64,000 nucleotides of DNA, taken from Laetmonice hystrix (Eukaryota). The stretch is from positions 21,268,001 through 21,332,000 of the forward strand of contig OZ249436.1 in assembly GCA_965235115.1 (NCBI GenBank), read 5' to 3'. This document shows positions 7,817 to 63,550 of this stretch, in pieces. How positions within the stretch are numbered: position 1 is the stretch's first letter; each line of letters begins with the position of its first letter. The translations under genes were made by a program, and so were the position numbers. Under the pieces are notes generated by a model. The model was not told the DNA's origin. It searched no databases and worked only from the letters and a program-made list of their open reading frames with translations.

Positions 7817-10263
7817 AACTAGACATCATGATTGCAAGCAATACACTAATCCCATTTCCTCCGGACGTCATGAGGAAAACGCCAGGTGCCATTCGTATGC
7901 TATCAAGTAACTAAAGTGGCCCATAGCCTTACCACTCTGCCATCTTGGTTTTACTGTCAGTCCTGGAACCTTTGTCCCAAATCTCAGAAATGTAATTGAC
8001 AGAGGTCAAGTTATGGGAAAATTATCTCTGAAAACCATGTATGTCAAAATATTTCATAACTATGATTTTGACAAGGTCTCATATCCTGCCTGGTGGTGTT
8101 TTGGTATTCAGAGCCTGAAAAATGAGAAAAAGAAAATTCCTTATTTGGTGGGATTCGAACCCATGATCTCCAGCCTTTAGGTCGGGCATGCTACCCACTC
8201 AGCTATTGAGACTCATGCTTGTAGAGGTACCTAGGTCCTATTTGAAGTAGGTGGATGACGTCATGACACAAAAGAGTGACGTCACAGAAAAAAGTTTGCA
8301 TAAATCTAGCTCAGCATCCCATCCTCTTTAAGCCTACTAAGTTTCATTAAGATCTGTTAAAAACTGCCAGAGATAATGACTGATTTCTGGTAAACTTTAT
8401 CTTTGAGAGTCCATGTATGTCAAAACATTTCATAACTATGACTGTGACAAGGCCTCATATCCTGCCTGGTGGTGTTTTGGTTTTCAGAGTGTGAAAAATG
8501 AGAAAAAAATTGTCGTACTTGGTGGGATTCGAACCGATGATCTCCAGCCTTTAGGTCGGGCATGCTACCCACTCAGCTATTGAGACTCATGATTGTAGAT
8601 GTACCTAGGTCCTATTACAAATAGGTGGATGACTTCATGACAGAAAAGAGTGACGTCACAGAAAAAAGTTTGCATAAATCTAGCTCAGCATCCCATCCTC
8701 TTTAAGCCTACAAAGTTTCATTAAGATCTGTTAAAAACTGCCAGAGATATGACCGATTTCTGGTAAACTGACCAAAGAATCAAACTTTGATGTCACGTGA
8801 TTCAGTGAAAAAAGGTCCGATCGCTAAACAACGGCCCCACAATTTTAAGCTATCCACTAGGAACATCCAGAAGTGGTTTGGTCAAGATTTTCAAAAAAAT
8901 GAGAGAGTAGTAAGGATTTAACCATATTGTGACCTTTGACCCGAATCTCAGAAAGGGTAATGATCCAAGGTCAAGTTATGGAACAAGTATCTTAGAGAAC
9001 CATCCACGAAGAGGATCTATAACCAATATTTCCCCAAGTAACAGTAGTTTTGTGTTGGGAGTTGATGAAGTGATGCTCCATGTGACGTGTTTGAGACGTC
9101 ATAAAACCAAGACATGACGTCGCATGACGTCCTGCTTCATATGCGTAGATCTTCATCCCATGATGGAACTTCCGTGCAAGTTTCAACCTGATATCTTAAA
9201 AAGTGACCGAGATATACACTTTGTCTTACAACAGGAATAATAATAATAAAAAAAAGTTTGCATAAATCTAGCTCAGCATCCCATCCTCTTTAAGCCTACT
9301 AAGTTTCATTAAGATCTGTTAAAAACTGCCAGAGATATGACCGATTTCTGGTAAACTTTATATTTGAGAACCATGTATGTCAAAACATTTCATAACTATG
9401 ACTGTGACAAGGCCTCATATCGTGCCTGGTGGTGTTTTGGTTTTCAGAGTGTGAAAAAACGAGAAAAAAGTTTCTGTACTTGGTGGGATTCGAACCGATG
9501 ATCTCCAGCCTTTAGGTCGGGCATGCTACCCACTCAGCTATTGAGACTCATGCTTGTAGAGGTACCTAGGTTCTATTTGAAATAGGTGGATGACGTCATG
9601 ACACAAAAGAGTGACGTCACAGAAAAAAAATGCATAAATTTAGCTCAGCATCCCATCCTTTTTAAGCCTACCAAGTTTCATTAAGATCTGTTAAAAACTG
9701 CCAGAGATATGACCGATTTCTGGTAAACTGACCAAAGAATCAAACTTTGATGTCACGTGATTCAGTGAAAAAAGGTCCGATCGCTAAACGACGGCCCCAC
9801 AATTTTAAGCTATCCATTAGGAACATCCAGAAGTGGTTTGGTCAAGATTTTCAAAAAAATGAGAGAGTAGTAGGGATTTAACCATATTGTGACCTTTGAC
9901 CCGAATCCCAGAAAGGGTAATGATCCAAGGTCAAGTTATGGAACAAGTATCTTAGAGAACCATCCACGAAGAGGATCTATAACCAATATTTCCCCAAGTA
10001 ACAGTAGTTTTGTGTTGGGAGTTGATGAAGTGATGCTCCATGTGACGTGTTGGAGACGTCATAAAACCAAGACATGACGTCGCATGACGTCCTGCTTCAT
10101 ATGTATAGATCTTCATCCCATGATGGAACTTCCGTGCAAGTTTCAACCTGATATCTTAAAAAGTGACCGAGATATACACTTTGTCTTACAACAGGAATAA
10201 TAATAGTGTAGACGAAACCATACAAAATCAAAATCCCATTTCCCCGTCAGGGAAATGGGATAA
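7817..10263 (-). mobile_element. Non-autonomous Helentron/HINE-like element with internal tandem duplication
   Basis: One end has palindrome atcccatttccc-cgtca-gggaaatgggat (10233-10261) beside an (AAT)n tract. The other end has the same 11-mer atcccatttcc (7849-7859), a small hairpin attgc-aa-gcaat and CTAG. Inside are two ~960-bp copies plus a partial ~370-bp copy. Confidence 0.7.
8147..8214 (-). other. tRNA-derived module (Pol III A and B boxes), copy 1 of 3 (others ~8520-8588, ~9481-9549)
   Basis: Minus strand reads gagtctcaaTAGCTGAGTGGgtagc...atgGGTTCGAATCCcacc. Acceptor and anticodon stems do not pair well. Confidence 0.7.
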
Positions 10264-29780: not shown

Positions 29781-31733
29781 GTGCAATAGGTTTAAAATAA
29801 AACAGACACAAACTGTCAGGCTGTCGGGACAGAGCCACAAGAACGTATGACATTTCATACTAAAACGAAAACGTACCTGATTCAGGTCGATTGGTAAGCA
29901 TACCCAAACTTCAGAAAAGAAGTCACGTAAATGCAGATATGGGTGTCTTTATTTCGGATAAATGCAAACCCTGTTATTAGTGCGAATCTTCTACTTGCTA
30001 GATCCCAACCATACATTGTGTGTGACAGTAAGTATTCGCTCGTCTCATTGGTTTTCTGATCACCTGACTCTGTAACAGCTCGCACCAGGTTAAACACTAT
30101 ATCAACAAATCAGTTTGTTTCACAAGAGGGCCATGTGAGGCCTGTTTCCATGAAAACACAGAGGCCAGGGAAGACGAATGAACGAAAGCATTGACAAAAT
30201 AACAAAATCCACTGCGCCGACTACTCCAGTTACTGTGCAACTTCTATACTCTCCAGTGACACGAAATAATAATATAAAACAGCACATTCACCTATGGCAC
30301 GCTCTGGGTAGCCGGACACCTCCACCTCTTCGTCCACATCCCCCCCCCCACCCCCCAAACACATGCTCAGTCGGACATACTTGTATCCTGGGCCAGGAGC
30401 CTCCGCCTACACGACGGTATCTCGTGGAGCCCTCTGGTCGCGAGTGCAGGAACCGTTAATACACAGAACATATGTAAGCAATAATATATATACACGGTCG
30501 GCTGATGACGCCGATCACGTGACGAGCCGTCTGACCAGTCAGATCCCGGCAATGAACACTTTCACGTGTGAGGACGTTCGACCAAATTGCAAACCACGTT
30601 TATTGTCATAAAACACAAGTTGTGTGAATTCTACGAACAACTATATTAAATCACCTGAAATATGTGACAGTACATTTTACCAATTCGGTTTTCTTCTTCT
30701 TCAATACAGGTGGAGTATTTGACATGGTTAAGTATACCGTGGCTAAAGGTTTGGGAACATCCTCACTTCCATATCTGCCGTGGATATGTTTACCTAACAA
30801 TATCGTGCTAAATCTGTCTACATCAACACGTACCGTCCGGGACGTATACCGGCTCGGCTGTAAGTGTTACGTATTCCCGCTTATTTACGAATTAATGTTA
30901 AAATGTCGGATGACAATGATATTATGACATGATGTAGCTATGGGACTCACATATCACACTGTTTTCAGCGCCTAATTGTGGACGAATTTAATTTGGTTGT
31001 TTATATCCTGAAATAATGAGTGTTTTCCCCCTTGCGAATTCTAAGACGAACCTTGATTTCGAAATCATATATGCACACATGCAAACGGGTACAGTATATG
31101 GTTCTTCCTAAAACACGACTGAAATGTTGACAATCGAACGGAGAGATGTGGGGTTGTTAAGTTAACGTCAAAACATATCGGTGTAAGTATGTACAAACAT
31201 GTTACAAGGCGATAGTTACCACCACTGGTTATACATGCTACCTAAAAACTTGCCTCTGGTTACCACACTATGTATAGTAGTGTTAGGTGGCTGGTGACAA
31301 GCGTGTGTTTGCCGTGTTGTTATCGTCAATACACGGAAACACCCTCTCACAGGGCCAGCTACATGCAATGTTCGGACCTGCCTACAGACGGCGCCCCTGA
31401 GCTCCGTCTCCGAGACCGAGACCTGCTAAGAGATTCATTTCAGCTCGCCTTTGATTCACTCCGCTCCAACTGTAGGTGTCGCCCTGACGCAATGGCTGAG
31501 ATTCCAAACCTCCGTTCAAATGGACATTAAGACTAATATCATCGTGGCAAATAAAAGGCAGTTCTCTGATATATTATAAATGACCTACGCCAATGTCTTT
31601 CGTCTCTCCCGAAGTCAGTGCTCACGTCACAAACCATCTCGGGTATAAAGTCTCGTGTATGTTTAACGCCCAAACGGTTTACTTCCGGTTACGTCGTTTT
31701 GTGACGTCAAAGGGGCCTACAGTTGTGACGTCA

Positions 31734-31900
31734 TCAATATGTGGGTTGCGGGCTGTTTGAGGAGAAGATGGCGGTGGCGTGGTCGCGAGCCTTCGTACGG
31801 AGGTCGGCCAGGCTAACATCGGTTGGGCTCACTCTTTGGGAAGGTTGTTGCTGTTGTGCCGGCTGGTGTTGCAGTTGAGGCTGTTGTTGAGTTTGGGCCA
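31734..31900 (-). CDS. Pax2/5/8: Pax2/5/8 last exon, alternative acceptor and frame encoding an OAR/PHT-like tail
   Basis: cgctcacag|TG, 25 nt downstream of the main acceptor. With the phase-1 donor it reads (M)AQTQQQPQLQHQPAQQQQPSQRVSPTDVSLADLRTKARDHATAIFSSNSPQPTY*. Confidence 0.65.
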
Positions 31901-31925
31901 CTGTGAGCGTAATTATAATACGGCG
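31813..31925 (-). CDS. Pax2/5/8: Pax2/5/8 last coding exon, canonical frame
   Basis: cctatttacag|CG; (T)PYYNYAHSGPNSTTASTATPAGTTATTFPKSEPNRC* resembles the vertebrate SPYYY tail. TAG at 31813-31815. Confidence 0.82.
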
Positions 31926-32793
31926 CTGTAAATAGGGCGGAAACAAACATAGCTGCTGATGGCATCTGAGTTGTTTTTGAGAGAAAAAGAATGCCACGAG
32001 AGGCATGTCATAATGAAGTCCCGACTGACCTGTTGGATTGTGCGACCAGAGGTTTCGAATATTCAAAACATTCTCGTTGCTTGTTTAGTCAGATGCGAGT
32101 TAAAATGGCATTCAATGACGTGCGACGTCACAGCTGTACATGCGAGAACATGTCGCCATGAGAAGCGATCAGTCACTGTTATAATAGCCATCATGCTCAC
32201 ACAATCCCACACGTATAGTCTGACGTACTACTAAAGAACTCAAGATGCATGCTTGTCTTAATCATTTGAATCTCCTAACATGCAATTAGTGCGCTTATGG
32301 ATTAAAAAGTAAATCAAAACTTGAATTAAGATCTATATGATTTTAACTGTTTTCAAAATAGAGATTTTCATATTCTTGTTTGAATTTTAAAACGTGCAAA
32401 AAGAATGGAGCACAAGTGACCATTGGTACGTAATAAATCTAAACAACGTTCAGTAGAGAAAACCTCAGTAAACCTCCAGCCTCTTAACACCCTAGCTTAA
32501 CGCGTGCAGGTCATTGTAACCCAACCCTTGACTGCAGTCTTTCCGTGTGTTAAATCATGCTCAACTTAATAAAAATAATTATAATTGTAACCCAATCTCT
32601 CTATGTGACGTCAGGGTGACGGGCCAGTCAAGGAATCGCCAATTAGATAATCTGATGAAGGAAAGGGAACTCTGTATTGCCGAATATATAATGACCAAAT
32701 TTCCCCCTACCAGTATGAATCAGCCTTGCCCATTATCTGTAACCTGGAGTTCAAACAATCACTAATTATGAAAAAACCCCGCGCAGACAAAGG

Positions 32794-32940
32794 TACTGTA
32801 TATCAGGTATTTTTCGCATGTGTTTTAATTTCGCCATTTTCGCGTTTTCAGAAAAAAACGCCAATTTAAGAAACGCCAAACCAGCTCAAAATAAAAAAAA
32901 CGCGAAATTTTAATCACGCGAAATTAAAGTGATATACAAT
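32794..32940. mobile_element. Degenerate palindromic MITE
   Basis: tgtatatca...tttcgc repeats opposed by cgcgaaa repeats...tgatataca. Confidence 0.5.
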
Positions 32941-33181
32941 CGTCGTTATATATTCGGGCTGGACCTTTAACCTTCTAACACGTGATATTTTCTTTCTACA
33001 ACTGTCTTTGAAAGATGAGGCTGTGGGTTTTTACACTTCGAATGACTAGGATATGGTTTACACGTTGACGGATAGGAGGCCGATAGATCCGACGGAGCTG
33101 CCACCTACTGGTGGTGTAAGAGAGCTGGAGCATGGGTCATGTGACCTCCTCCTGAGAAGGACGCTGCTGCCCAATACTCAC

Positions 33182-33280
33182 TTGGATAACGCATCGACCA
33201 GGACGACGGGTCGGTGGAGTAGTACTGCGCATGTGCGTGGGTGTATGGAACGGTTGTGTACGATGTGTAATCGCTTCCGG
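33182..33280 (-). CDS. Pax2/5/8: Pax2/5/8 C-terminal transactivation-domain exon
   Basis: gttttcttacag|CC ... CCA A|gtgagt; 99 nt, phase 1/1. (A)GSDYTSYTTVPYTHAHAQYYSTDPSSWSMRYP resembles Pax2 GSEFSGNPYSHPQY...W. Confidence 0.87.
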
Positions 33281-35117
33281 CTGTAAGAAAACAAGACGAT
33301 GAGAATGAGACAAACCGTGGGAAAATTAGACGGCTCTCTAAAAAAACTATTCTAACATAAATGGCAGTAATAACTAAAATCTCTTATCAGGTCTCCCAAT
33401 AAGCCTGGAAAGATTCCAAATATTATACACAAACATGAGTTGAGAAAAAACTATGTAGAACTTCTAAACACATTCCGAGTTCAGTTGTGTCTTTTAGATT
33501 CTGTGGACACGTACTAATATTATAACTTTACTACATTTGCTGGTATACATAGAGCCGTGCATACTCACAACAAAGGATACGAAATGGGACAGTAAAGTGG
33601 CTGGGACATTATTTTAAACATTATCCAAACGTGCAAGAAGTTTTGTTAGACTAAAAGGACACAACACGACTCATGATGCATGCTTCTGTCTAAGCATATA
33701 CAACTGTAAACTATACAATGAGTGACGGACAAAATGAAACATATCTCTTGGTGTATTTCTAAAAACTGCAGACTCTGATTTATACCGCTATATGTAATTA
33801 AATGGTGTCACCTAACGCCTACTCGTAAACACGTAGGAATAGCTATCTATAGCTTATGAATATGTATGAAGATTTGGCCCGATCTGTCAACACGTGCAGA
33901 GTGTCCAATTCCTATCTGGTATGTGCCTATGTGCTCAGACATGCTTTTACATAAATTTCCCCCGTAGTCAATCAACTATCCCTGCACAAAAAGTCGCTTG
34001 TAAAACGTGCTTGTGGGCTCAAAGTGGGAGACGATAAGCTGCACCTGTAGACTGCCACACTCCGTGACACACACCGACAGCTGCTGGTAATGACATTATA
34101 TGAGACTATTTACCACATATCGGCTCGCCCCTCCCTTCCTCTACATCATATATTCACATATATATTTCAGAAAGCGTTCATTAGGAGCCGGGTGTGCCTC
34201 CCCCCCCCCCCCTATGGACCCCCCACCCGCCGGGCGAGCACGCGCTGCCTCTATAACTGGGCGGCTGACATGGCTATAGTATAGAGAAGTCGGCACGCTT
34301 TGAAGGCAATCCTTCGTTAAGTCTCCTTAATCAGCAACGACCCTTGTTCGTTCCCGCTGTGCTGTAATCATTGCCCAGATGGATGAGGCGTGCGCCGGCT
34401 CCCTTCGGAACCAGGGACGCACCGACACAGTCAGTGCCACACTGAATTATATTTAAATTATATCGAGTACATAAAACGCATGTACAACGAATCACACGTG
34501 GTAGCCACCAAATACATGTGAGACGCGTTAGGCATGCGCACTTTGATGCGACCAGGCTTTACTTTTCTGGATGGCCGATCACGAGTAAAGAAGCGGAGCT
34601 GCACATAAACGCTTATAAATTCATAACATTGGGGGCCCATGGGTCGGGGCCTCGTGAGAGCGGCTGGTGGTGGGAGTCTAGCATCAAAGGGATCAGGTGG
34701 GTCGGTCTGTGTAACCATACACCGTCTGTCTCTCAGCTCTACTCTCTATCCATACCCTCTCAATCTCCGCCAATGGCATCTACACATGGCCGTCATAGAG
34801 ATACAAATTGGTGGATGGTAGAGTGAAACCGACTCAACGTGTCGGCGTCATTTCTTTGTATAGAGGTTCAATGTTCATCTCGATGGTTATTGTATATAAC
34901 AACACCAGATGTTGGCATCAAACGGCATGGTGACATAACAACAAGAAAACTCCACACCAGGTCTGTCGGCAAACTTCAGAACCTCATTATTCTCTCTCAA
35001 TCTATTAAAACATCATTTGGGTGATGTCAGCAATAATTGGCAAAGTGGCAACTGAAGCGGTGCTCTGGTTATACTGTATTATTGGGATAACACAGAACGG
35101 CCGCCGCGAACCGTGCC

Positions 35118-37523: not shown

Positions 37524-39156
37524 CTGCAACAGAGAACAGGAACCAACCACCTTAGCATTAATACCTCAGCCAAGCATCCAAAGAACCTACTTAACATTTT
37601 TCAGAATACGATCAATTGTAGTTTTTTTTCCAGCAGCCCTGGTTAGTTTCTCTGGAAATTCAAACAGCCTGAGATCCCTGGGGTTTCCCAAAGGGAATCT
37701 TAATCAGCACCTGGGGAGGGATGGGGATTGCTACCCTCTTTAATTGATAAGAATTTGACAAATTTCCTTTCACCAAATGTTTTTCTGAAATACGATGCAA
37801 GTAGGGATACGAAGAATAATTAAGCCGAAACCAAGCCTACAATCAGTACGTAAGGTAGGGGGTACAGAGGAAAGGGGTTAAAGCATCAAGATCTCCATGT
37901 TCTCTAACTTATTAGCACCGCCTCTACCGAAACAACGCAGTAACATGTATTAAGTGTAAACTATAGGGCAGGCTTGATGACCAGTTGGATAGAATCATAC
38001 AGATCGTTGTGTGGGCATGATATATTTTCCCCCACTGCGGTCCAATCATAAACCAACATAATTGCGCGTTATCCGAGGTACAAACATACCACATCAAACA
38101 TTGCCACAAACGTAATCCTCCATACGGTGATATTAACTGTACATGGTTAATCACGACTGATTCATGGCCTTCCACGGCTCATTCAGACAGTTCCGGTTAG
38201 AACGCTGACCAATGGTCAAGGTCCCTGACTGACCACACGGAGGAGAACGCTGACCAATGGTCAAGGTCCCTGACAGACCACACGGAGGAGTGCATAGCAA
38301 GTGAATGATGATGTGGGGGGGCACTCACTTTTCATGAGATGCTGAGAGTTCTTTGAAACCGAGTCCGGCAGTTGTGTGCGATAGTATGGCCCCCCTGTCA
38401 GGGTGGCAGGCGGGCGGGCAGGCTCTGCCATCAATCTGGACCCCACATCAAAGGACAGCGCGGGTCGGGCGGCGGGCCTTCACCTGCCACCGAGCCGGTA
38501 ACTGCCGTGCTATATGGCCGGTCAGGTTGAGGTTACGCCGCCCAGAGATGGTACCGGCCACATAGAACCTCGACCACCCGACCAGCAGTCGTACAATTAC
38601 ACGTACGTACATGCAGAGGCAGACTCAGAAAATTCTGAGAAAGGAGGGGGGGGGGGTGAAACAGGGCATTCGGAGGGGAGATTCTCTCTTAAGAAAAGAA
38701 AGTCTCAAAGCGACATTTATATATTTATCTTAATACACTAAGGTATAGCAGGACATTTGTAGAAAATAGAGAGCTCCTTTGAGTATGGATAAATTCAGAT
38801 GTTTTTTATGACTTTAACTGGGGAGTAGGGGGGGGGGGGGCGTTCATCTCCCTGCCTTGGCGTGTACTTGAAGTCTGTTCACCACTGTTCACCACTGTAT
38901 CCTGGGTATACCGGGCACAGACTGATCCCAAGCCTTAAATTCCAGAGCCTTGCCATGGAATGGCCATTGAGGCAGGCAATGAAAGTTCCTGTTCGGCATT
39001 CCAATTGAACATCAAGAGCCCCTCGGGCATGGTTGGGGCGATGCCGTCATGTTTACCACCTGTCACAGGGTATCAGGGAGGGCGTCGGCCAACAGCAGGT
39101 TCATGGTCGGACGAGGGGCTGCTGCCAGGAGGGGGCCGCGGGGCAGGCTGTGCCAG

Positions 39157-40345
39157 AGGGTTGGAGCAAGGGCCAGTTGGTGTGGGTATCACAGGGGTAG
39201 AACAAGGGCCAGTTGGTGTGTGGGTATCACAGGGGTAGAAGAAGGGCCAGTTGGTGTGGGTATCACAGGGGTAGAGCAAGGGCCAGTTGGTGTGGGTATC
39301 ACAGGGGTAGAAGAAGGGCCAGTTGGTGTGGGTATCACAGGGGTAGAACAAGGGCCAGTTGGTGTGGGTATCACAGGGGTAGAGCAATGGCCAGTTGGTC
39401 TGGGTATCAGAGAGGTAGAGCAAGGGCCAGTTGGTGTGGGTATCATAGGGGTAGAACAAGGGCCAGTTGGTGTGGGTATCACAGGGGTAGAGCAAGGGCC
39501 AGTTGATCAGTATCACAGGGGTAGAGCATGGGTCAGTTGGCGTGGGTATCACAGGGGTAATGCAAGGACCAGTTGGTGTGGGTATCACAGAGGCAGAGGA
39601 CTTGTTAGGGGCCAGTTGGTGTGGGTATCACAGGGGTAGAACAAGGACCAGTTGGTGTGGGTATCACAGGGGTAGAACAAGAACCAGTTGGCCAGTATCG
39701 CAGGGATAGAACAAGGACCAGTTGGTGTAGGTATATCACAGGGGTAGAACAAGGACCAGTTGGTGTAGGTATATCACAGGGGTAGAACAAGGACCAGTTG
39801 GTGTAGGTATATCACAGGGGTAGAACAAGGATCAGTTGGTGTAGGTATATCACAGGGGTAGAACAAGGACCAGTTGGCCAGTATCGCAGGGGTAGAACAA
39901 GAACCAGTTGGCCAGTATCACAGGGGTAGAACAAGGACCAGTTGGCCAGTATCGCAGGGGTAGAACAAGGACCAGTTGGCCAGTATCGCAGGGGTAGAAC
40001 AAGGGTCAGTTGGCCAGTATCACAGGGGTAGAACAAGGGTCAGTTGGCCAGTATCACAGGGGTAGAACAAGGGTCAGTTGGCCAGTATCACAGGGGTAGA
40101 ACAAGGACCAGATGGCCAGTATCGCAGGGGTAGAACAAGGACCAGATGGCCAGTATCGCAGGGGTAGAACAAGGACCAGATGGCCAGTATCGCAGGGGTA
40201 GAACAAGGACCAGTTGGCCAGTATCGCAGGGGTAGAACAAGGGTCAGTTGGCCAGTATCACAGGGGTAGAACAAGGACCAGTTGGCCAGTATCGCAGGGG
40301 TAGAACAAGGACCAGATGGCCAGTATCACAGGGGTAGAACAAGAG
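39157..40345. repeat. 34-38-bp minisatellite, ~33 copies
   Basis: ggggtagaacaagggccagttggtgtgggtatcaca (36 bp), grading into 38-bp and 34-bp variants. Confidence 0.95.
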
Positions 40346-41785: not shown

Positions 41786-42606
41786 CTGAAATAACCGGTC
41801 AACAAAGTCCAACATTACTACTTTGTCGACGGCGTAAAACGGCTACTCGCACTGAACGTTAACAGTACGGGTTCAGACCACAGTCCGTGTGAGTTCTGGC
41901 GAAGGTTTGGAATGGTAGCCGAAGAGTTTACTGTAGATTGCTGAGCATCGACCGTAAACCTATGGTAGGATATATTATAACCCTATATCACTGGAGACTG
42001 GGTGGTCTCCTCGTGACGTCATCATCCGGGACCTTGATGTCAGTTAGGGATGATGTACACACCAAGGTCTGTACACTGTTACTATCAGGTAAATATGTGC
42101 AGGCGGGGGATTGTCTTTACATAAATATCCAGATCAGACTCCAGCTAGGACCTTTCTAAGACTACTGGATGCTTAATCTTCTAGAAAGAGAATTTAGAAT
42201 GGCTTTAGAATCGAACCCATTTTCGTGTTTTTTAAATATTTTTCTTCGCACCTTTTCTATTGATGGCACGAATAAGTCATACCAAAAAAAACGAATAATC
42301 CGACAGACAATAATAGATGATCCCCTTTCTAAAGCCATTCAATCGAAACTCTCATCGATACACACAAAACAGCAACATTATAATATTGGTAAAAAAAGCT
42401 ACATGTAAAATGCACTATAGGATCTAAACATGGGCAAAGTTCACACGAAGCATTCAGTTACGATTTTAAGAGCTACGTTACGGCATGCAGCATATCAATA
42501 CATATAAATGCCCACACGTGATCTGAGAGGCATGTTGTTAACGTGAGAGTCGACCTGTCGACAGTGGCGCCCCCTTCTTCCTGTGCACAAAGAGCCCAAA
42601 ACTTAC

Positions 42607-42737
42607 TTTCAGCATACTGGCTCACTGGCACAGGGGTAGTCGATTGTTGGTGTTGGATTTGCACTTGCTGTTGCTGTTGTTGCTGCTGCTGTTGCTGCTG
42701 CTGTTGCTGAGACTGCTGTTGTTGTTGCTGATGCTGT

Positions 42738-42775
<38 letters not shown>

Positions 42776-42900
42776 CTGTTGCTGCTGTTGCTGGGGTACG
42801 ATACTAGCAGGGTCGACAGAGACCAATGTAATGGTGGGTGGTTTCACGTCGGCGGCAGTGACCACTGTGGCTAGTTGGACGGTCGCCAGTGCGTTATTGC
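42607..42900 (-). CDS. Pax2/5/8: Pax2/5/8 internal exon with polyglutamine tract
   Basis: gtttcgttag|GC ... GAA A|gtaagt; 294 nt, phase 1/1. Encodes (G)NNALATVQLATVVTAADVKPP...Q20-H-Q6-S-Q15...PVSQYAE. Confidence 0.82.
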
Positions 42901-45900
42901 CTAACGAAACAACACAACACGCCGATCAAACTCAAGCCTACCACACACAATCACATGCCATTAACTGGGGGTAGGAGATTTAAATAAAACAAAAACTTAT
43001 TGGTAAACTAAAGGTGCATGCTCGACAGTCAATCAATCCACACAGTGAACAGGTCTGATCTTATTCCACATGTTTGCATAATGATTTGTGTTCTCTAGAT
43101 AATCCTAAAGAGTTCAAAATTCAAAATTCACTTTATTTCCACGTTCTTAACGATTTAGTCGGGCTACATCTTTATAAACTAGGGTATTGTTGACGTGGGG
43201 AAAACCTAAAAATCATTACCAAAATGGATAGTCAATAATTGATAGTCAATGTTTTTATGCTATAGTTCTAATTCAACACAATACTATATGCAAACAATTG
43301 TGTGGGAATCACCTTAAGCGAAATCATTCAAATGCTATGCTGGAAAATGTAGCGTGCTTTTCCACCAGTAAGATTCGTGCTCCAGCATCAATACGTCAGA
43401 AACAGTAACACAATGCAGAGATAGTTAAAATACGGACGAAACATGATGCAGAAACATGCAGGGGGTACCATGCAATAATGGGTCATTCTCAAGTCTCAAG
43501 TGTTTGCCTGTCGGATATTTACGTGGGGTAGGGTTTTTACCCGGATAAAAGAACCTTTCCCCAGCGTTCGCTCCGCCTGTAACTTGGTTTTTACAGTAGT
43601 TGAATGAGTGCCGACTGAGTGAGCGTTGACAGGAGTGGTGCTGGATGAAGACATAGTAGGATCACAGCATGCTTGTGTCATGAACGGGAGCTGGATGACG
43701 GGGCGCGGGCCGGGGGCCGTGCTGGGCTGGCCGGGGGAGGCCCTACCCACCCCGTTAGAAGTGGTCAGCGGGAGGCCGGGGTAGTAATGGGCGCCCGGTC
43801 GGCCCGCTACACGTGTTCTCGGCCCGGCCCCTCCCAACCGTCAAACCCTGTGTCCCCGGCCACTACATCACCCGTATACCATACGCTATCAGACGTCCAG
43901 TCGGGCACATCTTGAAAACGGCCAACCGAAAACGACACTCGTATACCAAACTCCGGAGGTTTTTTTTATCGTCTGGAGGAATCACCCCAGCGGTATATCT
44001 CCATGCTGAGGAAATTCGATTTAAATCTCCTCCCTCCGACCAAGCTGCGGGCTACTGCTGCGGCGACAATGAAATAGGCCTGCGAATCATGTGCAAGATG
44101 GCATTCTCGATATGGAAGCCAGCTTTACGTTGTCTGTAATACGTCACTGATTACGACTCTGTGCTATCCCCCAGCAGGTCTGTCCAGGAAAGTTCTCAGA
44201 CACGTGTTCATGGTAACCACAGCCAAATTGGTGCTGGGATATGGACAGCAGAGCCTGTGGTGATCTGTGTCGGAACACAGGGATATGATTGCCCGTATCA
44301 TGCCATATCCACCACGGGGCAAACATGTCGGGCATGTAGGGGATGAAACCGGAAACTCTCGCCTACAAGTGTAAGGGGTCAGTCGGCGGGAAGTTGGCCA
44401 TTTACTTTTCCAAGTAACACAAGCTCCAAAGTTTGGTGTTGGCAGCCGTTTGTAATCTGACAAACATGTGCAGACTGTCATCAACCTCTAGCTGGCTGTC
44501 AACACATGGTCAAGTATGGCTGAAAACATGATTTACCTATCCGGCTCGCTGCCTGGGCAGCCCTTCTTATTATAGTCCCCGGGACCCGGGTAATCAGTGT
44601 GCATGTGTAACAATATTGAGGATGCTCCCAGACACAAATACCAACCTTTCTAAAGTTAGAGATTTTTTTCTCTAACCTGATAAAGCTCACAGCATGCCAT
44701 TCTTACACTGATTGTAGACCTTCAAGTTGTGTATCAGAACCACATGAGCTGTGGTGACGGATGCGCGACACCCAATACGTCATGTCATTTGGCGATACGT
44801 CAAGTTTGCATAGCGAGATTTCTGGCTGCTTTGGTGGCTTGTTGGTTTTTGTGGTGTTTTTGTTGGTTTTGTGCTTGACCTGGTTGGCTCGATGACAGGG
44901 TCGGTCAGCGCTAACGGTGTGTGGATATTCCGACACGATGACGATTTAATGACAAGGACGTAATGTCTCAGAATGTTGCGAGTGTTGGGATACATTGTAA
45001 GTTAGAGGCTGTGACAGGGGAGCGGGGCCTGCTTGGAGTACGACCCCACTGATGTAAGCCATGTGTGGAGGGTGGTGGGAGAGGGAGGAAGGCGTGGGAC
45101 GGTTGGTGGAGGTGGGGAGGACAGCGGCGGCCGAGGGTAGAGGGCTGGCCGGGGCCGTCCCCTGCCGGCTGCCGTCCACATGTTATACACAAGGAGCCCC
45201 GGCGGGGCGGTGACGGCCGCCGCCTGGAGCCGCCCGGTGCCCACCTCCCGGGAGCTCCCCGCCGACCCGCCGACCGGCAGCAGGTCGAGCCAGCCCCGAC
45301 ACGCACATCCAACCGGTACCGACGGAAAATTGCTCTGCATGCTGTCCTTCCAAAGCCCATTACGCTAGTTACGACAGGAGCGCAAACAGCGGTAATCGCG
45401 AGTACTACAAGTCGCTTTTTGATCGTAAAGACGCGGCTTTTACGAGTTCAAGGCAATTTTAAACAACTATATCCTGCGCTGCTTGCGGGAGACAGTATTC
45501 GTACCCACCGACTTCCGCTAAAAAAATATGACGTCATCGAGAGGCTCAAATACTTCAGACATCCCAATATTTTTCATCAGTTTTACAGTATGCCATTTTC
45601 TTCCAATACGGAAGAGCTACATGAATTGAGGAAGTTTTCAGTTAATGTGTTTACTCCCCGTCAACTCGTTGCGGTTCAATGACACCCTCAGTATACGGTC
45701 TATAGCGACGAGAGGAACGGCCAGCAATAAGGGGCCAGGGGCTATTGTTCAATGTCATGGGTATTTACTCCGGAAAAACATCCCTTCTCTACTATGATGA
45801 CTTTATAGCCAAAGGCTCTCTCCTCAAGAGGCCAAAATTGTTAACATATTTACAACTGGCCCGGTGTATGTTCTTCACACTAATACTGAGATAATTAGTC

Positions 45901-54513: not shown

Positions 54514-54746
54514 CTGGTTCGTCATGCCGCCGTTTATTGTTGCCATTGACGTCAGCCGTGGGTGTGATGGAAGCAGGTGGGTGTGATGTTGGAATCCCTA
54601 TGATACTCGAGATGCTGTAAGACTGTGGCGGCCCACTATGTGCGGTGGGAGCCTGAGTGATCACTGGGGTGGCGTTACCCGGCGCCACCGGACTACCCTG
54701 GCCGATCTGACTCTTTGCCTTCTCCGCCGCCTTGTTCCGTACTATC
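54514..54746 (-). CDS. Pax2/5/8: Pax2/5/8 exon: end of paired domain and octapeptide
   Basis: ttacag|G ATA GTA CGG AAC completes ...INR-IVRNKAAEKAK. Contains octapeptide YSISSIIG (cf. YSINGILG) and basic KRRHDE. Donor G|gtaagg; 233 nt, phase 2/1. Confidence 0.93.
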
Positions 54747-55489
54747 CTGTAATAACGACGCCCGATTAAAACACCACTTTTAGTATACTACTCACAACAA
54801 AAGTCTTAACCTAGCCCTACTCAAGTATCGTCGCCACCTGGGCGATCCATACGAGCCGAGGCAGGCTTTTTCTCTCTCAAACACATTTGTTCTATAACCT
54901 TCAAACTAGAAGTCGTTGTCATTACAGGCCAATGTTTTAACAGTTAATGTGAGCGAATAAATCTATATCTGCCCAGGATCGGTTTATGACAGTCTTTGTT
55001 CCGTTATAAGCCGTTTTGTGTCGGGATTTATTGGTAGGTCGAAGGTTCAAACACAAGCATCCGGTGAGTAAAGCAGTCTTCACATAACCGTTCTATTCAC
55101 GTCCGACCCGTATGGTTACAGGGGGCACTAAGCCGACACACAGCGGGAACTTTACGGTACTCTGTGACATAACTGTCCCCGCTAACATCCACAGCCACCT
55201 TTTGTTACATAGTAAATAGACTGAGGTGTGCCACTGACCAATTGACGTAATCCCGACTGTTGGAATTTAAATACTCATAAATTACGCTTCTTATGGACTT
55301 TTCACACCAATGTGTTGTTCTGGAGTGTTGGACAGAATCTAGCTGCCACATAATACGATACTGTCCAATTGTTCTGACCAAGAATTAAGGGCCCCTCTAA
55401 GTGCCTGGAGTAGGTCTACAGTGAGGCTCGTTAGAGGGGACCCTATTACACCCCCCTTCTAACCCCCCCCCCCCCGCCGCCAGAACCTA

Positions 55490-58350: not shown

Positions 58351-60383
58351 AAACGTTCGTCAACATTTACGTAAAATTGGGTTAGATTTTGGCAAGACTG
58401 CTACCATTTATGTTTTGACCTACTTTTGAAAAATCTAAATTTAATTCATGTCGCTCCGGAATGACTTTGGTAAAGTTAGGTAAAGTTTTAAGATTGTGGT
58501 TGTTGTTCCAGAATCTACCAGACGAGGCGTTGAAAAGTAAAATATCCTGTTGACATTTAACAGGAAGGAACATAACGGCCGTTACACGGAACTGTACCTT
58601 GAAAACGGTGTCTAGCCTTGTAGTACGATTTTCCATACCACTTGTTAACATTTAGTAACATAACTAGGTCTTATAGAACTGAAGGACCTTCATCTACTTT
58701 GAGTGGGGGGAGCCTTTGGTGTGATGTCGTGCCATGTATAATAAACCATGCGATTTCATGTACGATGGCGCTCGTGTCGGCCGACCTCGAGTCACGTGAT
58801 CAGTTTGAATGGCGTCTAATTTGGGCTAATCACACGGGTGATATCCCGGGGTACAAAGACCCAACTTGTTGCTATCCATGACGACATGAATGTATACACG
58901 AAAGTGCAGGGGTTAGTCGGGGTCTCCGGTCGTTGTCAACTGTCCACCCACCCGCCCCCTGGCGGCCAGAAATCACGGCACACTATAGCACACAACATGA
59001 ACACGTTGGCTGACAAGTATCGTTAGTGCGGGGTGGAGGGGTGGGGTGGGGAGGGGGTGGAGGGGGGTGGAGAGGGGGTGTATACTGTAGGGTCTATAAT
59101 TGAGGCAGAGCTTGGCATGTATGTAATGATATAATGTCCTCTAGTACCGTCAGCTGATTTTACAGAGTCAGGCTCAGAAGGTATGCGGTACACATGGAGA
59201 AGGGGACACCGCGGGACTGGATACATTTCTTAAAGCTACACCCTCCAGTATATACCAGGGACATTAAGAATACCGAAGGGCCTCTAGAGTAACCGTTACG
59301 CTTTGCTCTCAAATCTATTACACCCCCTTGCCCCTTTTTCTTCCAGCCTATTTGGAGATACAAAGTAGGTCTGGTCTCTGCGTCATCAGGTTAGCCCCTT
59401 GCGTGTTTAGACATCTAAAAAATCTACAGAAGGGCCAGGGTGTCCCAAGTGCGGACCATCTGGTGCGTGAAACGTAATCGGCGTCTGTATTACTTGGGTC
59501 AACTCCGCCGGCCTTTCCTCTCTCTATTCTCTTGTCTATCTATACACTGTAGGGGCTATACGGTCTCAACATGGAGTCAATTCACTGCTGTAAAATATAC
59601 GCAGAGATGGCCATCTATATCGACTTGACTTCAGCGACAGTTTCCTTTAACGGCTCGTGGTCGTAAACACATCTTATCTTGATTACATTCAAACGGGCGT
59701 TAGTGCATTACCGCCCAACGTCCTTTGTACCGCCACTTCGCCAGTCTCACCACAAACTTCTCACGTTACCATGACAACAAAGCATTCTATGTTGTGCCAG
59801 ATCAAACTTTCCATTTTCGGGGCTGGGGTTGAGTTCAACAGAAAAGGGATAAATTTAAAATGAACTTTCCGAATTGTGAAAAAAAAATCGTGTTGCCTTC
59901 ATGTAAATTTATGTGAAAAAGAATGAACACCACAAGTAGAGTGTGTGCCGATAGGTCCAATAATAAAAATAAAGCGTGGGGAAATACATGTACAAACATG
60001 AACACACAACAACAGGCGACAACTCGGGAAATCAGCAGAAAGGTTAGCCATCCAGCAGCAGCAGCAACAACAACGACAACAACAACAACAACAAAATATT
60101 GATTCGTTGCTGGATTTGGAAAGATGCATGCATTGATTACATAACGGCATGCAGCGCAGCTTGAAGAACAGGTACGGGTTGTGTGTTGTACCATGCATGC
60201 ATGACTCTCTCCGACCAGGCGACCAGCCGACCAGCGACCAGCCGACCAGCCACCAGCCGACCAGCCACCAGCCGACCAGCCGGGGAGCCACGACTATCCC
60301 ACGGCTCTCGGCCGACACATGCGGGGAGGGTGTGCGACACAAACACACTGCCACCAGAAGGTGGCCCAGTCTTGTCGCCTTAC

Positions 60384-60581
60384 CTATTGATCGAGCTCAC
60401 TGACGGCACGTTTTCTTGATCACAGACTCCCTCGGCCAGGAGCCGGTCACGGATCTCCCATGCGAACATGGTTGGGTTCTCTCGCTTGTACTTACAGATG
60501 GCATCGACTACCTTTGGGGTTGCCACCTTGGGTTTAGATCCTCCGATAACTCCGGGTTTTATAGACCCCGTCTCATAGTAC
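60384..60581 (-). CDS. Pax2/5/8: Pax2/5/8 paired-domain exon (linker + RED subdomain), copy B
   Basis: 198 nt, ttgcag|G ... AG|gtaagg, phase 2/2. Encodes (R)[65 protein letters not shown](R), closer to canonical Pax2 than copy A. Confidence 0.96.
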
Positions 60582-60650
60582 CTGCAACATCGGAACCGCA
60601 ATGCTCAAACCCTCTCCATCAATGTTGTTAGAATGGGTTACAACGCTTAC

Positions 60651-60848
60651 CTGTTGATGGAGCTGACGCTAGGAATGTTGTCCTGTGTGCACACTGACTC
60701 GTTCAGCAATCGATCGCGGATCTCCCACGCAAACATTGTAGGATTCTCCTGTTTATACTTGGTGATTGCATCCACCACCTTGGGTGTGGCCACCTTGGGC
60801 TTCGAGCCTCCAATAACTCCTGGTTTGACGGATCCAGTCTCATAGTAC
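60651..60848 (-). CDS. Pax2/5/8: Pax2/5/8 paired-domain exon (linker + RED subdomain), copy A
   Basis: 198 nt, acceptor ttgcag|G, donor AG|gtaagc, phase 2/2. Encodes (R)[65 protein letters not shown](R), the C-terminal half of a Pax2/5/8-type paired domain. Confidence 0.95.
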
Positions 60849-61586
60849 CTGCAATGGAAACAAAGGGGGGCGGGTCCACCACGGTTAGCGTTCATCTCCT
60901 GAAGACGTCACACCACCACCACCGGGTTGGCTACAGCTCCTGGCCACAAGGCGTCAGTCACTAAGGGTTAGATAAGAAACGGCATGCTCTCAATGTTAGT
61001 ATCATCCGTTAGCTTGAAAACGAATGGAACAGAAATACGCTTTAATTGCCCCAACTCGCCAGGGATGGAAGAGGTATAGACCTATTGAAGATTCCATGTT
61101 ATTATATTGATAACCACCACCGTGAGTTTAGTCAGGTCCATATATCAGAGATAAGGTGCTTGAAAATATATAATTTAAAACCGTCTATTATTATTATTAT
61201 TATTATCATTATGGACAGCCTAATTCTGACTGAGTGCAGCCTTTAAAAGTCCCCTCATAATGACATGGATAACGTTTTTTAGTAATAGATCGTTATCCAA
61301 AAAAAATAAGAAAGCTCACAGACCGAATTACATCTTGAGTTCATCTATACTAGTGTGACTAAATGATTCCTTCCGTCTAAAGTACCCACTGAGTCCATTA
61401 TGTCACCTTTTAGTGCCTCTTAACATTGCATAATTCCATGTCTAGCGGTGTCACCGGTCTATGAACACAACCATTAACGCAAATAAGGATCGAATGGAAT
61501 GCTTTAGTAACTTTACGATCTTGGAGAACCACATATCAAAGTAGATCTTTGTGCTCTTTTCCCTCCCTGAGTATGCGAGGCGATTA

Positions 61587-63048
61587 TAGGACCGCCTGAG
61601 TCTGTATCTCAGTCTGACTGGTCGACAGGCCGGGGTTCGTGCTAGGACCGCCTGAGTCTGTATCTCAGTCTGACTGGTCAACAGGCCGGGGTTCGTGCTA
61701 TAGAACCGCCTGAGTCTGTATCTCAGTCTGACTGGTCGACAGGCCGGGGTTCGTGCTAGGACCGCCTGAGTCTGTATCTCAGTCTGACTGGTCGACAGGC
61801 CGGGGTTCGTGCTAGGACCGCCTGAGTCTGTATCTCAGTCTGACTGGCCGGGGTTCGTGCTAGGACCGCCTGAGTCTGTATCTCAGTCTGACTGGTCGAC
61901 AGGCCGGGGTTCGTGCTAGGACCGCCTGAGTCTGTATCTCAGTCTGACTGGTCGACAGGCCGGGTTCGTGCTAGGACCGCCTGAGTCTGTATCTCAGTCT
62001 GACTGGTCGACAGGCCGGGGTTCGTGCTAGGACCGCCTGAGTCTGTATCTCAGTCTGACTGGTCGACAGGCCGGGGTTCGTGCTAGGACCGCCTGAGTCT
62101 GTATCTCAGTCTGACTGGTCGACAGGCCGGGGTTCGTGCTATAGGACCGCCTGAGTCTGTATCTCAGTCTGACTGGTCGACAGGCCGGGGTTCGTGCTAG
62201 GACCGCCTGAGTCTGTATCTCAGTCTGACTGGTCGACAGGCCGGGGTTCGTGCTAGGACCGCCTGAGTCTGTATCTCAGTCTGACTGGTCGACAGGCCGG
62301 TGTTCGTGCTAGGACCGCCTGGGTCTGTATCTCAGTCTGACTGGTCGACAGGCCGGGTTCGTGCTAGGACCGCCTGAGTCTGTATCTCAGTCTGACTGGT
62401 CGACAGGCCGGGGTTCGTGCTATAGGACCGCCTGAGTCTGTATCTCAGTCTGACTGGTCGACAGGCCGGGGTTCGTGCTAGGACCGCCCGAGTCTGTATC
62501 TCAGTCTGACTGGTCGACAGGCCGGGGTTCGTGCTAGGACCGCCCGAGTCTGTATCTCAGTCTGACTGAACGACAGGCCGGGGTTCGTGCTAGGACCGCC
62601 TGAGTCTGTATCTCAGTCTGACTGGTCGACAGGTCGGGGTTCGTGCTAGGACCGCCTGAGTCTGTATCTCAGTCTGTCTGGTCGACAGGCCGGGGTTCGT
62701 GCTAGGACCGCCTGAGTCAGTATCTCAGCCTGACTGGTCGACAGGCCGGGGTTCATGCTAGGACCGCCTGAGTCGGTATCTCAGTCTGACTGGTCGACAG
62801 GTCGGGGTTCGTGCTAGGACCGCCTGAGTCTGTATCTCAGTCTGACTGGTCGACAGGCCGGTGTTCGTGCTAGGACCGCCTGAGTCTGTATCTCAGTCTG
62901 ACTGGTCGACAGGCCGGGGTTCGTGCTAGGACCGCCTGAGTCTGTATCTCAGTCTGACTGGTCGACAGGCCGGGGTTCGTGCTATAGGACCGCCTGAGTC
63001 TGTATCTCAGTCTGACTGGTCGACAGGTCGGGGTTCGTGCTAGGACCG
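61587..63048. repeat. 56-bp minisatellite, ~26 copies
   Basis: Unit taggaccgcctgagtctgtatctcagtctgactggtcgacaggccggggttcgtgc. Confidence 0.97.
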
Positions 63049-63550
63049 ACCGCCAGGGTGCGTGACTGGGTCCAGGTGAGCAGATCGACTGCTGATAATA
63101 CGTCTATATCCTGTCCTGTTCCCTGTCAGCACCATAGGTGCCACCCATACATCACCAGGGTCCAATCATAGCTAAAACCGTCAGTCTGGCTGGGCCACAA
63201 CTCAGTCATTCCCGGCCGGGGCCTGCATGGGTATATACACGGTCATGGCGTGCACGTTCATGATCCATGCCATGTGCTTGTACGACCCCCACCACCTTAT
63301 CATACTATACATGTAAACATGTAAGTACATGAAGTCTGCCCTCACCACGCTGGTGACATACAAGACCTTCCTGACTATGCTGTACACGGTAACATCCCAC
63401 ACGGACTACATGTTTACACCCCTAGAGTACCAGGTTGGTCTCTGTCCAGCTAATAAAGGACGTTTAAAGGACGGTATCAGTAGGTTATAGTGTATTATGA
63501 ATGAAACGTTATCTGATGTTTTTTTACATGAACCGTACCTGGAGTACCTG

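Follow-up and report, generated by a model that had tools for sequence, protein, structure and literature searches.

Two splice acceptors in the last exon of a Pax2/5/8-class gene of Laetmonice hystrix, the inner of which opens a frame ending in an OAR-type motif

The DNA analysed, called the window throughout, is a stretch of 64,000 nucleotides from Laetmonice hystrix, and all positions given without a contig name are positions within it. Within it, on the minus strand, lie the body and the 3' end of a gene that, by its encoded peptides, is of the Pax2/5/8 class (group II Pax). Two adjoining minus-strand exons, at 60380-60604 and 60647-60907, encode the RED subdomain; over 60383-60583 and 60650-60850 their identity to a Tachypleus Pax-5-like protein (its residues 74-140) is 88% and 85%, respectively. 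The comparison of the paired domain rests on these RED exons, and the PAI exon falls outside the window. Further downstream the gene has an octapeptide, YSISSIIGI, followed by the KR-rich signal NNKRRHDE, the same pattern that is given for lophotrochozoan Pax2/5/8 in the passages available from PMC5333810. Those passages also state that the homeodomain is absent from lophotrochozoan Pax2/5/8 and that annelid isoforms 'remained elusive' (PMC5333810). With the octapeptide exon as the query, an orthologue search returned two proteins, a 162-amino-acid fragment and a Tachypleus protein, and all members of their clusters end in a PYY-type tail.

The penultimate exon ends in the donor CCAA/GTGAGT, with 33182 as its last base, and passes one base (A) to the next codon; both of its ends coincide exactly with a piece of a contig from the sequencing runs described below (X4 record 25). 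The peptide that it encodes aligns with the VPYTHAQY...W..MRYP block in the amphioxus, acorn-worm and oyster Pax2/5/8 rows taken from supplementary file 5 of PMC4901127, and this match to a published block fixes the reading frame. The C-terminal block of the class, VPYTHAQY...W..(M)RY and then [ST]PYY, is thus found in the gene, its PYYNY part only by way of the acceptor with exon start 31925. The sole variant in the penultimate exon, at 33258 (TAC/TAT), is synonymous in the gene's frame. Neither of the last two exons was recovered when P0002, a horseshoe-crab Pax-5-like protein, was compared with the window by tblastn, and BLASTP of the penultimate exon against P0002 gave no match.

Other features of the gene region were also recorded. 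Each of the two RED exons encodes a complete RED subdomain, the two differ from one another at few residues, and from their sequence the pair are candidates for mutually exclusive exons. A 150-amino-acid open frame at 42473-42925 on the minus strand, in which about 50 successive glutamines separate two ordinary-looking flanks, may be an internal Pax2/5/8 exon. Two long tandem arrays in which all frames are open, one with GITGVEQGPVGV-type repeats on the plus strand (38900-40330) and one with TDSGGPSTNPGLSTSQTEIQTQAVLARTPACRPVRLRYRLRRS-type repeats on the minus strand (61450-63100), both lie within the Pax introns or the upstream region.

Table 1. Positions of the exons, splice sites, coding parts and motif at the 3' end of the gene (a slash marks the splice point)
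Feature	Position	Strand	Details
Octapeptide exon	54518-54748	-	RIVRNKAAEKAK; octapeptide YSISSIIGI, then NNKRRHDE; aligns with P0002 and P0001
Penultimate coding exon	33182..33280	-	99 nt; phase 1 at both ends; encodes (x)GSDYTSYTTVPYTHAHAQYYSTDPSSWSMRYP
Intron of assembled transcript	31901..33181	-	1281 nt; GT..AG
Upstream acceptor AG	31926..31927	-	TTTACAG/CG; exon start 31925; preceding 25 nt 76% pyrimidine
Downstream acceptor AG	31901..31902	-	CTCACAG/TGG; exon start 31900; preceding 25 nt 56% pyrimidine; the one in the assembled transcript
PYY-tail coding part	31813..31925	-	(T)APYYNYAHSGPNSTTASTATPAGTTATTFPKSEPNRC and TAG (31815-31813); upstream-acceptor frame, Pax2/5/8-type
OAR-tail coding part	31734..31900	-	(M)AQTQQQPQLQHQPAQQQQPSQRVSPTDVSLADLRTKARDHATAIFSSNSPQPTY, that is (M)AQTQQQPQ...SLADLRTKARDHATAIFSSNSPQPTY, and TGA (31736-31734); second TGA next, to 31731
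Stretch coding in both frames	31813..31900	-	88 nt; low-complexity in both frames, S/T/A-rich versus Q/P-rich
OAR-type motif	31767..31814	-	SLADLRTKARDHATAI; Pfam-aligned part 31776-31814; wholly downstream of the PYY-frame stop
3' untranslated region	30500..31733	-	X4 record 25 positions 342-1742 on 31900-30500; about 136 nt more past 30500

Two acceptors, separated by 25 nt, give entry to the last exon, and they set reading frames that are offset by one; CTCACAG is the sole other AG within 25 nt after the first acceptor. The frame opened by the downstream acceptor runs 79 nt beyond the stop of the PYY frame, and the first codon of the OAR-type motif (AGC, 31814-31812) overlaps that stop. The OAR core lies entirely past the stop of the PYY frame, which confines true dual coding in the exon to 88 nt (31813-31900). 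A first-pass annotation had placed acceptors at exon starts 31925 and 31900, a shifted open frame entered from the second, and a motif beginning at the stop of the other frame, and all of its coordinates proved correct on the minus strand. Its description of a dual-coding last exon is also fair, since the PYY frame too looks conserved: it resembles chelicerate tails, while the other frame holds the OAR-type motif.

No heterozygous site was found in 31734-31925, against seven in the 1234 nt of the 3' untranslated region, numbers too small for a test of constraint. The perfect palindrome TGACGTCA stands immediately past the OAR-frame stop, at 31702-31709 and again at 31726-31733, together with CCGGAAGT. 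The palindrome occurs 17 times in the 64-kb window, where about one copy is expected; others are paired at a distance of 12-24 nt, and the copies at 8256 and 9591 are part of a repeated element.

Evidence for the use of the inner acceptor came from four sequencing runs of one sample from one study (X1-X4), compared over 30500-34500; none of the four is on record as RNA. In runs X1-X3 cover extended over exon and intron in the same way, as expected of genomic DNA, and X4, whose library type is not on record, was taken as transcript-like only from its cover on exons and on an intronic repeat. Record 25 of the X4 contigs (1878 nt) matches 33280-33182 at its positions 243-341 and 31900-30500 at its positions 342-1742, unbroken. 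The joint between 33182 and 31900 passes over 1281 nt, its ends read GT..AG on the minus strand (CT..AC on the plus), and its position is unambiguous; it was present in one contig of X4 and in none of X1-X3. A retrocopy as the source of this joined form is ruled out, since the tail is present as a single copy in the 627-Mb genome and the joint is absent from the DNA runs; the contig therefore represents a spliced transcript. Acceptor 31900 is used in this transcript (one contig, one run, one sample), and its product ends in a Q/P-rich linker and the OAR-type motif.

These data bear on how the two frames were first named. The use of the downstream acceptor, as first proposed, is borne out by the X4 contig, and of the two junctions suggested for comparison the one from 33182 to 31900 is present, whereas the one from 33182 to 31925 was not among the listed joints of X1-X4, all from a single sample. 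Translation of the exon likewise upholds the two frames; the labels 'canonical' for the upstream and 'alternative' for the downstream entry, however, may be reversed in this animal, since 31900 gives the assembled form and 31925 went unseen. As the contig is unbroken across the junction, the X4 sample probably contained little or none of any competing path, bearing in mind that contigs indicate presence only. The last intron also contains, at about 32644-33045, a highly repeated interspersed element, at which the word depth of the DNA runs is in the thousands and there are many loose ends and internal joints.

The tail reached from the upstream acceptor starts with (A)PYYNYAHS and ends with TFPKSEPNRC, and horseshoe-crab Pax2/5/8 proteins end in ...PSYYYAHSARPPSSSGLGGPISPNTFKSERC. 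The Pax-5-like proteins of Tachypleus and Limulus (P0002-P0004), with PSYYYAHS...NTFKSERC, are thus similar at both ends to the PYYNYAHS...TFPKSEPNRC found here. Among the rows taken from supplementary file 5 of PMC4901127, the Pax2/5/8 proteins of oyster, amphioxus and vertebrates have [ST]PYYY at the position of PYY, and fly Sv ends in ...KSES.... The proteins of horseshoe crabs, amphioxus and oyster and fly Sv have no Q-rich or OAR tail, unlike the gene described here; all are single annotated isoforms and so are silent on their other frame. When the PYY tail was aligned with the last 36 residues of P0002, its score was reached by 65 of 5000 shuffles in local alignment and by 32 of 5000 in end-free global alignment; for the OAR frame, used as a control against the same protein, the corresponding numbers were 4812 and 749 of 5000. 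The similarity is modest, the best BLASTP segment against chelicerates (the first block) having an E value of 0.11. The TF.KSE..RC end is kept at a place where the other frame encodes a mere Q/P-rich linker, and this conservation is most simply explained by selection on the PYY frame. Given the resemblance of the PYY tail to horseshoe-crab C-termini, both frames look constrained, each appearing to carry information.

In a Pfam search with the 54-amino-acid tail from the downstream acceptor, OAR (PF03826) was the sole family found, with 15.2 bits and an E value of 0.019 over profile positions 6-18 of 19. This score is below the curated gathering cut-off of 20.1 bits, and we therefore call the motif OAR-type rather than a certified member of the family. 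A scan of the whole 627-Mb genome with the Pfam OAR profile gave 18 places at E <= 10, and the locus was absent from these; as a blind genome-wide OAR match it would not stand out. Seventeen of the 18 places score at least 19.7 bits, and each of the 17 lies downstream of a homeobox exon on the same strand and within 32 kb (150 of 311 homeobox candidates scored), so that together they form a clean set of true motifs.

A profile built from these 17 motifs gave the tail 18.7 bits within its 116-amino-acid ORF and 20.4 bits alone. With this own-genome profile the ORF ranked first when the 2844 ORFs in the six frames of the window (102,286 residues) were scored, the runner-up having 8.5 bits, and none of 200,000 composition-preserving shuffles of the tail reached the real score (highest, 14.0). 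Compared with the 17 motifs, SLADLRTKARDH has all fixed positions of the core S-[IL]-A-x-L-R-x-K-A-[KR]-x-H at the same spacing; it is without the preceding serine run of most of them and has T where they have L/M/R/A/K/I. The motif also lies near the C-terminus, 10-13 residues from the end, as an OAR does. From the single sequence, AlphaFold2 predicted one helix at residues 30-45, with a mean pLDDT of 84 over residues 31-40; no other element was predicted in the tail. The ten best named matches in an Atlas feature search, which serves as a lead only, were all OAR clusters (top, 0.88). The similarity of the motif to OAR is far above chance. The close match to the OAR consensus that had first been noticed is thus sustained by the core positions and by the own-genome profile; in the Pfam check suggested at the same time, OAR was indeed the sole family, at a score short of the curated level.

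One mark of an OAR is that its protein also has a paired-type homeodomain; here no homeodomain match was found in the window (150 of 311 candidates scored). Capture of the exon from a neighbouring paired-like homeobox gene was considered and ruled out on the same count. Among the ORFs of at least 60 amino acids in 1-31700, the 70 longest of 162 contained no Pfam domain at the curated level. Searches for relatives of the tail were negative throughout. The 54-amino-acid tail, compared with a collection of 5.8 billion clusters, gave 37 candidates among those of lengths 96-2000 and one among those of lengths 29-95, none at E <= 10 in either case; its last 36 residues had no match at E <= 0.001 among 1.84 billion representatives, and of 589 matches to the tail pattern in JGI metagenome contigs none was confirmed.

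Pax2/5/8 genes act as regulators of kidney, ear, eye and midbrain-type development, and how strongly they activate their targets depends on their C-terminal tails. Doerfler and Busslinger are said to have described, in 1996, the extreme C-terminus of vertebrate Pax2/5/8 as an inhibitory domain. Our preferred reading, which we hold with moderate confidence, is that the choice of acceptor in this last exon swaps a PYY tail for a Q/P-rich linker and an OAR-type regulatory helix. Entry at 31925 yields a tail like those of Pax2/5/8 proteins elsewhere (PYY...RC, with the stop at 31813), and entry at 31900 yields the linker and then, over the 79 nt past that stop, a predicted short amphipathic helix of OAR type. 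The frame of the upstream entry keeps a chelicerate-like start and end, from which we infer that this entry is also used somewhere and that splicing switches between two C-terminal regulatory tails. A possible cause of the choice lies in the branch point. Within 75 nt ahead of the second AG a strict YTNAY occurs just once, as TTTAC; its A, at 31929, precedes the first AG by 2 nt and the second by 27 nt, and branching at this A would exclude the first AG. By analogy, the OAR-type helix may serve as a module for regulation or for binding of partners, with an influence on transactivation or DNA binding; OAR itself is thought to act in transcriptional activation, according to passages of PMC4901127.

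It is also possible, however, that the OAR tail is the only one in this animal, with 31900 used constitutively, the PYY frame an ancestral relic that has not yet decayed, and no switch between isoforms. The sole listed joint is that from 33182 to 31900, and the unbroken contig suggests that a competing path is rare or absent in the sample; but contigs drop rare variants, and a single sample was at hand. The upstream AG, moreover, has the better pyrimidine tract (76% versus 56%), and the PYY frame still has a chelicerate-like start (P.Y.YAHS) and end (TF.KSE..RC-stop) opposite a mere Q/P-rich linker. We regard constitutive use of 31900 as unlikely, though it deserves to be kept in mind. Chance is a far poorer account. 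An OAR-like frame without function, reached by a sloppy acceptor, would agree with the sub-threshold Pfam match and with a stop within the last exon, which would let such a transcript escape nonsense-mediated decay; against this, the tail exceeds the field of 2844 ORFs in the window by 10 bits, none of 200,000 shuffles matches it, and the transcript assembled is the one joined at 31900, which is thus no minor form. We consider a combination of chance motif and splicing noise extremely improbable.

A further alternative accepts the helix as real and takes it for a convergent, lineage-specific invention, an amphipathic LR.KA..H element that arose past the old stop and did not descend from a homeobox OAR. 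The motif is short, a helix of 13-16 residues; its Pfam score is below the cut-off; it departs from most OARs of the same genome in the serine run and in the T at the L/M/R/A/K/I position; and no relative bearing the motif was found in the clusters, representatives or JGI metagenome contigs searched. The 2016 review, in the passages available, likewise places OAR among the Pax genes in the Pax3/7 family only, yet it also describes Pax genes as thought to descend from an OAR-bearing ancestor (PMC4901127). Against convergence, every fixed core position is matched at the same spacing, to a score not seen in 200,000 shuffles, and vertebrate PAX2 has an exon of the same design. On balance we judge an independent origin to be quite improbable, and we retain acceptor choice between two tails as the preferred reading.

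The nearest known parallel is in the same gene family. Tavassoli, Rueger and Horst reportedly described the PAX2d isoform of human and mouse in 1997. In that isoform, as summarized in the text available from PMC2689858 and PMC8665868, the first 19 bp of exon 12 (the last exon) are skipped and the stop lies 64 bp past the usual one, with an extension that human and mouse have both conserved. The present gene is alike, as far as those sources describe the isoform, in having an acceptor inside the last exon, a skip of 3n+1 nt (19 there, 25 here) and a shifted frame that stays open beyond the usual stop codon (by 64 bp there and 79 nt here). It differs in being of protostome type, in that the downstream acceptor gives the assembled form, with transcripts using it represented by one X4 contig from one sample, and in that the extension carries an OAR-type motif, which the PAX2d extension might share. 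C-terminal isoforms of amphioxus Pax2/5/8, reportedly with a PHT among them, are said to have been described by Short and Holland in 2008 and by Short, Kozmik and Holland in 2012, and they could be the same phenomenon in a chordate.

With the OAR of paired-like homeobox proteins and of Pax7 and invertebrate Pax3/7, the motif shares the core, the position near the C-terminus and a predicted helical fold; it differs in its score below the Pfam cut-off, in the lack of a homeodomain in the gene, and in being reached only through the frame shift that acceptor choice brings about. We read the exon as an acceptor switch of the PAX2d type, which here brings out a motif of OAR type in a Pax gene that lacks a homeobox. 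In the literature searched (PHT or OAR with Pax2) there was no statement of an OAR in a Pax2/5/8 gene, though one may have been described before, and the supplements of PMC5333810 contained no string of the LR.KA type. In the passages available from their review, Buerglin and Affolter (2016) restrict OAR within the Pax genes to Pax7 and the invertebrate Pax3/7, and consider it most probable that one was present in the ancestor of the Pax genes (PMC4901127).

A wider reading would make the dual-frame last exon an ancient bilaterian feature of Pax2/5/8, homologous to PAX2d, with the hidden frame preserving the ancestral Pax OAR; this we put forward tentatively, as a doubtful possibility. If it were true, Pax2/5/8 would never have 'lost' its OAR but kept it behind an acceptor switch, and each such gene would have a choice of two autoregulatory C-termini, of which most annotations overlook one. 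Expression of a tail of OAR type from a Pax2/5/8 gene would directly support the model in which 'proto-Pax had PD + octapeptide + HD + OAR', and would hint at the nature of the conserved, unexplained extension of vertebrate PAX2d. The exon also offers a checkable example of overlapping frames, each apparently with conserved information, that are selected by one splice choice. Gene models guided by homology would choose the PYY frame and so miss the form assembled from the transcript-like run.

The genome scans also brought out groups of homeobox genes elsewhere in the genome. Three paired-like homeobox genes with near-identical OARs, SIASLRLKAK[EQ]H, form a local cluster of 80 kb (G000:C1:38904569-38984722, L002-L004). 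Two tandem arrays of near-identical homeobox copies lie on another contig, one of about 14 copies at a spacing of about 3.3 kb, 12 of them scoring 42.6 bits (G000:C4:18747796-18823889), and one of about 12 copies, most scoring 79.8 bits, with open frames of 294-439 amino acids (G000:C4:22895291-22932197); both arrays look like lineage-specific expansions of homeobox genes.
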